From NCBI RefSeq assembly GCF_045037415.1, contig NZ_CP173438.1: 64,000 bases of DNA. One strand, written 5' to 3'. The position numbers and the translations under genes were made by a program. The notes under the pieces are model-generated. The model ran no database searches. It was not told the origin of the DNA and saw nothing but the letters and a program-made list of their open reading frames with translations. This stretch comes from Escherichia coli (GTDB taxonomy: Bacteria; Pseudomonadota; Gammaproteobacteria; Enterobacterales; Enterobacteriaceae). Positions 1,801 to 2,221 of this stretch are shown one piece after another; the first letter of the stretch is position 1; each line of letters starts with the position of its first letter.

Positions 1801-2221
1801 ATCTACCCTGCTTGTACCATTATGTTATACACCTCTTTAGGAGTATTCATAAAACAAGGCAAATGTAAAGAACTGTATTGTTTTGTATAACCACATGGTT
1901 ACCTAATCGCCAATTAATATAAGCTCCATTATTTCTCCATATTTTTATGTTAGAAGTGACAAAGAGAAATGTAATGTTTCTCTCAGAGAATATAAATCAT
2001 TCCTTTTGCCCACCTTAATGGTGGGCTTTTTTATGCAAAACCTGAACGTCCTGTGGTATTCCTCTGGCATAATGATTTTCGCGATTAACCAACAACCAGA
2101 CCAGCAAAGACGCCACCACAAGCACAGTAACATCCATCAGGCTTGCCACACCCCATGCGTGCGGCTCAAAGCCGCCATGGCATATTAATCCGCTTGCCAT
2201 TTTCGAACAGCTGATTGGTTT

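Follow-up and report, generated by a model that had tools for sequence, protein, structure and literature searches.

Comparison with homologous sequences makes it very probable that a small hydrophobic open reading frame (ORF) on the minus strand of Escherichia coli DNA is the leftover tail of a phage gene, that it belongs to a prophage scar beside thrW, and that the hairpin in which it ends is a separate terminator of the plus strand. The DNA analyzed was a stretch of 64,000 nucleotides (the window), in which a sequence-only reading had described a minus-strand ORF of ca. 40 aa between yagU and a genomic island, with its stop within a hairpin that is followed by a run of T on the plus strand. 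The sequence and the ORF list confirmed all of this. The ORF extends from ATG 2137 to TAA 2017-2015 (2015..2137, minus strand; 40 codons, MDVTVLVVASLLVWLLVNRENHYARGIPQDVQVLHKKAHH), its TAA sits in the hairpin loop, TTAAT, and the location given, between yagU (1186..1800, minus strand) and the island (2468-14010), is correct. The translation consists of one hydrophobic helix (residues 3-17 are strongly hydrophobic, with a Kyte-Doolittle 15-residue mean of up to 2.9) followed by a polar, basic tail. By itself, the ORF is unremarkable against chance, since the first 5 kb of the window holds 34 listed ORFs of at least 40 aa. The same minus-strand frame is open back to GTG 2245, which makes a 76-aa ORF (2015..2245), and in identical ST131 genomes PGAP calls a 61-aa “hypothetical protein” from ATG 2200 (WP_000146240.1; 2015..2200, minus strand). 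The first ca. 8 residues of this protein are the phage gene read out of frame, owing to a 5-bp deletion after 2171.

Relationship to a phage membrane protein gene

Codons 1 to 19 of the ORF correspond to the last transmembrane helix of a phage membrane protein of 96 to 97 aa (PHROG 1443, annotated in phage 21 as “putative membrane protein”). Only positions 62-96 of the 97 in the PHROG 1443 profile were matched by the window ORF (E value of 1.2e-7), which also matched PHROG 34165 (1.1e-13). Paralogues of window 2082-2209 are found elsewhere in E. coli genomes at 82% DNA identity, and the one in the BL21 prophage Rac is a 97-aa ORF whose full protein matches PHROG 1443 with an E value of 2.4e-58. 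The remnant covers 2081..2209 on the minus strand, i.e., approximately codons 53 to 96 of the gene, and this stretch is homologous to the last ca. 44 codons of CPT_21_24 of phage 21 (UMO75439.1), of WP_000355360.1 in BL21 Rac and of the copies in prophages carrying the type I cytolethal distending toxin genes (CDT-I; e.g., WP_029305512.1), with ca. 80 to 82% DNA identity (82% for BL21 Rac and phage 21, ca. 80% for the CDT-I prophages). The hydrophobic helix of the ORF is the C-terminal transmembrane segment of this CPT_21_24-type protein, and the start codon is an internal Met (SLMDFAV…) of the ancestral protein, …WDVASLMDFAVPVVACLLVWLLVNR(G)*. Compared with the complete gene, the window keeps the 3′ third only, with the N-terminal ca. 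52 codons missing, a 5-bp frameshift that breaks the phage-gene frame upstream of the ORF, a start at the internal Met and a lost stop.

The gene context also differs. In phage 21, J, the side tail fiber gene and a 92-aa ORF are followed by the PHROG 1443 gene, with which the series ends, and the intact order (side tail fiber, PHROG 1361 ORF, PHROG 1443 gene) was seen in phage 21, BL21 Rac and the CDT-I prophages. The gene is present in 72 phage records, and a relative is encoded by 331 viral-contig stretches, in many cases right at the edge of the predicted prophage. In the window, what precedes the stub is the 3′ fragment of an integrase, which stands where the tail-fiber genes normally lie.

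An intact gene with the colinear sequence after it is carried by 64 E. coli genomes and by a single viral contig (L049). The CDT-I prophage copies L049, L103, L106 and L107 read …AATCGC/G TAA and continue with sequence homologous to window 2077->1746; the gene together with this colinear sequence is ca. 80% identical to the window. At the position of the former stop codon (2078..2080, minus strand; codon 20 of the ORF), the window and strain FDAARGOS_497 have GAA instead of TAA. The following 2033..2077 (minus strand), formerly 3′ untranslated region (UTR) and now codons 21 to 35, is the least conserved stretch of the comparison, with 69 to 71% identity over 2033-2080, and also carries a nonsense polymorphism at 2065. 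Codons 20 to 40 are thus former 3′UTR, and the 21-residue polar tail is not of protein-coding heritage, because the stop was lost and the frame runs through the old 3′UTR to the TAA in the hairpin loop. The whole 40-codon ORF is then a chimera of the last 19 codons of the phage gene and 21 read-through codons. The sequence-only reading had hesitated between a small membrane peptide and a remnant, and the remnant option proved right, as the hydrophobic residues belong to the C-terminal helix of a phage protein of 97 aa and the polar tail is former 3′UTR. Apart from the pair formed by the CDT-I prophages and the chromosome, we found no origin for 1966-2077 in phage genomes (blastn), species genomes or viral contigs; the blastn search of phage genomes used 1940-2110 as query and returned nothing.

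The scar at thrW

Next to the stub is the 3′ end of a tyrosine integrase of the SfII/SfV/P22 type, with its attP arm (2209..2421, plus strand). The int 3′ end and attP of SfII, SfV, SfI and SfIV, phages with a P22-type attP for thrW, share 93.5% identity with 2250-2466, and homology to HK75 and mEpX2 begins at 2209. It is followed by a displaced 46-nt copy of the 3′ end of the tRNA-Thr gene thrW (2422..2467, minus strand), similar to the ptwF att core, which makes the left boundary of an 11.5-kb island. Intact thrW is at 14011-14086, and the island (2468-14010), located between the two thrW copies, contains a P4-type integrase pseudogene, AbiEi/AbiEii and a type I restriction-modification (R-M) system. 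In an island-free strain the order is yagU, stub, int′, thrW and proA. A second, decayed thrW att core was looked for near 300-1000, and none was found within 3 mismatches.

The site between yagU and proA, where thrW lies, is a known island hot spot (PMC6592367). The K-12 ptwF/CP4-6 junction and the vat-type islands belong to the same proA-thrW/yagU hot spot and have the same displaced thrW 3′ copy (PMC6592367), but the island of the window carries AbiE and type I R-M genes rather than CP4-6 or vat. K-12 shares the window sequence only up to 1965 and again from 2404, with yagP-paoDCBA in the place of 1966-2403, i.e., where the window strain has a 438-bp phage scar.

These features are best explained by a lambdoid prophage once integrated in thrW, of which window 2078-2467 is the collapsed scar. 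Through an internal deletion, the SfII/P22-type integrase 3′ end and attP would have become joined to what is left of the last late gene, the 3′ third of that of PHROG 1443, leaving an ORF that starts at an internal Met and keeps only the C-terminal transmembrane helix. The natural TAA after …LLVNR would have changed to GAA, so that the frame runs 21 codons more through the old 3′UTR, and the lengthened frame would halt at the first in-frame TAA, which by chance is in the loop of the hairpin. The hairpin would in turn border a conserved non-coding block ahead of a cargo gene, yagU here and cdtABC in the CDT-I prophages.

Some other observations were made at this site. An internal stop divides the P4-type integrase of the island (2622-3953, plus strand) into 2622-2969 and 3177-3953, and the island is probably immobile, given that this integrase is a pseudogene. 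Compared with E. coli O25b:H4 (NZ_CP015085), there is a 768-bp insertion at 11087-11854 with a 167-aa ORF (11102-11605, minus strand) of the size of InsB; it appears to be a copy of IS1 interrupting hsdS of the type I R-M system of the island. Finally, a second fragment of the integrase-3′-end/attP type is located by intact thrW (13796-14055). Since it is only 75% identical to 2209-2466, the thrW site carries the scars of two different P22/Sf-type phages, besides the P4-type island.

Distribution and polymorphism of the ORF

At least 80% of 1990-2260 is carried by about 1,297 of 5,426 complete E. coli genomes (ca. 24%), and 2030-2100 by 1,201; the segment is therefore missing from about 76% of the genomes. 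Polymorphism was analyzed in seven E. coli haplotypes, so the counts are small, with yagU (coding for a DUF1440 inner-membrane protein), the downstream neighbor on the same strand, as internal control. The 15 variable sites of the ORF are distributed over the three codon positions as 5/4/6, compared to 2/0/34 in yagU (Fisher P = 7e-5). The pN/pS ratio of the whole ORF is 0.46 and that of its helix part 0.87; yagU, with 0.01, is under strong purifying selection. Furthermore, Nissle 1917, EC12 and SC455 have an AGA->TGA change at 2065, a nonsense allele that still leaves a 24-aa peptide including the hydrophobic helix, and the 5-bp deletion is missing in FDAARGOS_497-type strains, i.e., it is a frame-shifting indel polymorphism. 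A search of 5.8 billion proteins retrieved 16 clusters, all from E. coli and 38 to 97 aa long, that represent different frames and fusions of one scar, with start, frame and stop varying between strains. The ORF thus appears to drift, with no sign of purifying selection among its carriers, and the stub is best described as a pseudogene fragment that seems to be drifting neutrally and would give no functional product. The sequence-only reading had regarded lack of conservation in related genomes as fatal to a real peptide, and this is essentially what was found: some strains have the DNA, but the ORF is not conserved as a coding unit.

A different kind of variation was seen next to the ORF. In the 209 bp of 1839-2047 there are 2 variable sites among the seven haplotypes, whereas yagU synonymous sites and 2048-2262 vary strongly. 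Selection seems a less likely reason than a recombination block, since K-12 differs by ca. 7% over its shared part of this stretch.

The alternative to a drifting fragment is that the ORF, in its 40-aa, 61-aa or truncated (24 to 45 aa) versions, is expressed as a small membrane peptide, e.g., similar to a type I toxin, or an exclusion peptide exapted from the last helix. The outline is indeed similar. Type I toxins (Hok/Gef, Ldr, Ibs, TisB, ShoB, DinQ, ZorO) are of comparable size (less than ca. 60 aa with one predicted transmembrane helix, as is the 40-aa ORF), have one hydrophobic helix and a polar tail, and are located in or near mobile DNA. The strong hydrophobicity of the helix ahead of a polar, basic tail, its survival in the nonsense allele and the CDS called here by PGAP in most carriers all speak for a peptide, and so does a G-rich run resembling a Shine-Dalgarno (SD) sequence (GGGGTG), ca. 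11 nt upstream of ATG 2137, with a duplex energy of −6.0 kcal/mol (7th percentile of all ATGs). This run is simply the Trp-Gly codons of the ancestral gene; given its presence, occasional translation from ATG 2137 may be possible. However, the comparison with small-protein and type I toxin families that the sequence-only reading had proposed gave no match: Pfam, NCBIfam and PADLOC searches with the 40-, 61-, 76- and 97-aa proteins returned nothing meaningful, and Rfam, searched over 900-2700 at E ≤ 10, no toxin or antitoxin-RNA family. Unlike type I toxins, the ORF comes without a family match, a recognizable antitoxin RNA, a conserved ORF, repeat copies or a promoter, and homology shows it to be part of a larger protein. 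In the promoter scan, there was no promoter-like site upstream of it on the minus strand, nor one on the plus strand for the sole element capable of antisense action, an RNA ending at 2032 whose overlap with the ORF would be limited to the stop codon and the 6 codons before it. If we add the even spread of substitutions over codon positions, the pN/pS of the helix, the nonsense allele, the frame-shifting indels, the 38- to 97-aa lengths, the absence from most E. coli genomes and that of the hairpin 24-mer from representative genomes of other species (save for the matches discussed below), an expressed peptide seems highly improbable, and the phage-gene fragment is favored over a small membrane peptide, type I toxin included.

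The hairpin

The hairpin followed by T6 (2008..2032, plus strand) has the features of an intrinsic terminator, i.e., a G+C-rich stem (7 bp, 6 of them G-C pairs), a short loop of 5 nt and a U-tract directly 3′ of the stem. Its sequence is GCCCACC-TTAAT-GGTGGGC, with the 5′ arm at 2008-2014, the loop at 2015-2019, the 3′ arm at 2020-2026 and T6 at 2027-2032. Only plus-strand RNA would have the U-tract, since in the minus orientation the stem leads into AAAAGGAA. We considered the hairpin as the terminator of the phage gene or of the ORF itself, and rejected this for lack of a U-tract on the minus strand. The fold has an energy of −15.2 kcal/mol and a z score of −4.05, and none of 200 shuffled sequences was as stable. 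The motif occurs once in the 64-kb window, and a simple scan for terminator-like sites found 1 versus 1.6 ± 1.2 in shuffled sequences, which is not above expectation.

Conservation gives another line of evidence. When the chromosomal and CDT-prophage copies are compared, identity is 78 to 81% in the gene stub (2081-2209) and 69 to 71% in the former 3′UTR (2033-2080), rises to 88 to 92% in the hairpin with T6 (2008-2032), stays at 83 to 87% in the non-coding block (1905-2007) and falls again to 72 to 76% in the segment nearer yagU (1818-1904). In three of the four CDT copies, diverged to ca. 80%, the stem and T6 are identical, with two of the five loop bases changed. The sole stem substitution (in L107) is a plus-strand C->U that gives a U-G wobble in the plus-strand RNA and a C-A mismatch in the minus-strand RNA. 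This pattern would fit a plus-strand terminator under some constraint. On account of its stable fold and its conservation in diverged homologues, we judge the hairpin to be real, a predicted Rho-independent terminator of the plus strand, separate from the ORF. In the prophage, we infer, it would keep transcription running opposite to the late and cargo genes out of the tail-fiber genes; in the chromosome as it is now, it would prevent plus-strand transcription coming from the side of yagU from reaching the int′ remnant, the thrW copy and the island.

This role as a boundary is deduced, and the hairpin may equally be a fossil. In that case it would once have ended a leftward transcription unit (b-region or early) of the ancestral phage and would do nothing today, something that we regard as possible and somewhat unlikely. 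The ORF list and the promoter scan revealed no plus-strand gene or consensus promoter upstream of the hairpin, where there are only the yagU promoter region and a 23-codon ORF (1947-2018) without an SD sequence, and K-12 and most E. coli manage without the segment. Besides, in the phage 21 slot the next operon is the convergent cargo sitDCBA, so convergent units do occur at this junction. What a mere fossil explains less well is that the stem and T-run were kept while their neighbors fell to ca. 70%, which suggests constraint, weakly, as the comparison involves only two lineages.

When one genome per species was scanned for exact copies of the hairpin 24-mer, only Scalindua, Priestia and Methylophaga were retrieved. 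These organisms are unrelated, and the matches were dismissed as chance or convergent terminators. The same scan of viral contigs gave eight matches limited to the hairpin and one Escherichia prophage contig with the whole yagU-thrW region.

The conserved non-coding block

The block (1905..2007), which separates the hairpin from the yagU promoter region, shows 83 to 87% identity to the one located between the intact phage gene and cdtA in the CDT-I prophages, where the order is stf, ORF92, PHROG 1443 gene, block and cdtABC. These prophages (IHE3034, SCU-115 and IMG/VR UViG_2713897042_000003) are colinear with the window along the gene end, the ca. 45-nt 3′UTR, the hairpin with A6/T6 and the conserved block, and further along a yagU-type promoter region and the first ca. 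54 nt of yagU. They differ in that the gene is intact to its TAA, the hairpin loop is AGTGA and cdtABC is in the place of yagU-tfa′-ykgJ. In EC12 (L007, 2311-3271) there is a CDT-I prophage in thrW with cdtC adjoining the scar; if it has the usual layout, two inverted copies of the hairpin and PHROG 1443 gene would flank cdt.

Upstream of yagU, the block contains an inverted repeat, AGAGAAA (1963-1969) and TTTCTCT (1977-1983), with a 7-nt spacer. In two of the four CDT-I copies (L105 and L107), it is a perfect palindrome with 12-bp arms, AAAGAGAAACAT-G-ATGTTTCTCTTT, upstream of cdtA, and the other two have one arm mismatch. K-12 loses the right half of the repeat at its 1965/66 breakpoint. The repeat could be an operator or an RNA stem.

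The second of these options would be part of a plus-strand functional unit, an RNA of ca. 75 to 95 nt or a tiny ORF (from ATG 1947 or 1974 to TAA 2016-2018), ending at the terminator and divergent from yagU, that could regulate the adjacent cargo (yagU, or cdtABC in the CDT-I prophages). The orientation of the terminator suits the plus strand, the L107 stem change wobbles only in plus-strand RNA, and no other non-coding stretch is as well conserved as 1905-2032 (83 to 92%) when the chromosome is compared with the CDT prophages. The repeat at 1963-1983 would make a second stem ahead of the terminator, and the 97-nt fold has a z score of −3.5. However, RNAalifold with six homologues of 1900-2040 (plus strand) found zero compensatory pair changes and an unfavorable covariation term. 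Many models of Hfq-binding small RNAs (Hrs12, RprA, rseX, MicA, RyhB) do match 1940-2036 (plus strand), but weakly, with 19.6 to 24.3 bits versus thresholds of 41 to 70 and E values of 0.4 to 10, and these sub-threshold Rfam matches were set aside as noise driven by the terminator. There is no plus-strand consensus promoter in the promoter scan. As for the tiny ORF, it has no SD sequence at 1947, straddles the K-12 breakpoint (1965/66) and, in the CDT copies, lacks the stop and reads on to 40 aa. The conservation of the block can equally come from a yagU/cdt promoter-operator region, and we consider a plus-strand unit to be very unlikely. Hardly better are the chances that the hairpin and the ca. 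125-nt block (1905-2032) work as a portable regulatory cassette at the cargo slot, through a short plus-strand RNA or an operator. Our preferred reading of this end of the scar is still that of a predicted plus-strand terminator next to a conserved non-coding block.

The neighborhood of yagU

The window is E. coli DNA of the ST131 type, and its left part contains ecpE, ykgJ (608-937, plus strand) and yagU. Within the ecpE-ykgJ spacer, ca. 90 bp (481-571) are 85 to 88% identical to the DNA after cdtC in a CDT-I prophage. A homologue of this stretch comes after the sitDCBA cargo in phage 21, and another is located 48 bp past a PHROG 1443 paralogue in a different thrW-region prophage. The chromosome has hairpin, yagU, tail-fiber-assembly remnant and ykgJ between the two phage landmarks. 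Since homologues of 481-571 end the cdt and sit cargo in the CDT-I prophage and in phage 21, respectively, this arrangement suggests that yagU-tfa′-ykgJ occupy a phage cargo slot.

In the yagU-ykgJ spacer, there is an Rfam IS009 match at 980-1180 (minus strand; 193.6 bits versus a gathering score of 117), overlapped by a 39-aa “tail fiber assembly protein” in the PGAP annotation (ORF 993-1112, minus strand). The match appears to be EcsR2, a small RNA that has been documented as a transcript of this spacer and that all E. coli possess (PMC4350180). [quoted passage not shown] It is therefore, like the stub, a degraded gene of the phage tail-fiber region that flanks yagU; it differs in being documented as a transcript and found in all E. 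coli, whereas the stub (2015-2209) is present in only ca. 24% of genomes and is only predicted.

A YagU homologue with 90% amino acid identity is encoded by the Klebsiella phage ST13-OXA48phi12.4 (L108, 4989-5615), between the Q (late-regulator) region and the genes for holin and lysozyme, where morons classically sit. We looked there for the hairpin and the upstream block and they were not shared; only the CDS is homologous. Taken together, this suggests that yagU, and perhaps ykgJ, may be old phage cargo of moron origin, with a transfer that could have gone in either direction.

Implications

The scar is an ordinary one, and the main value of its analysis is annotation hygiene. Beyond this, the one point that is not trivial is that the conserved block also occurs upstream of cdtABC, and its copy ahead of cdtA is possibly worth a reporter assay; if the regulatory cassette were true, it would control the downstream cargo (yagU, or cdtABC), a genotoxin included. 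In the genome, yagU is bracketed by debris of the phage tail-fiber region, and its slot is the one occupied by sitABCD in phage 21 and by cdtABC in the CDT-I prophages. WP_000146240.1 and its siblings of 38 to 97 aa, which ca. 1,200 to 1,300 complete E. coli genomes, among them ST131 and Nissle 1917, list as “hypothetical protein”, should be regarded as a single phage-gene pseudogene fragment, rather than as candidates for a small membrane protein or a toxin.
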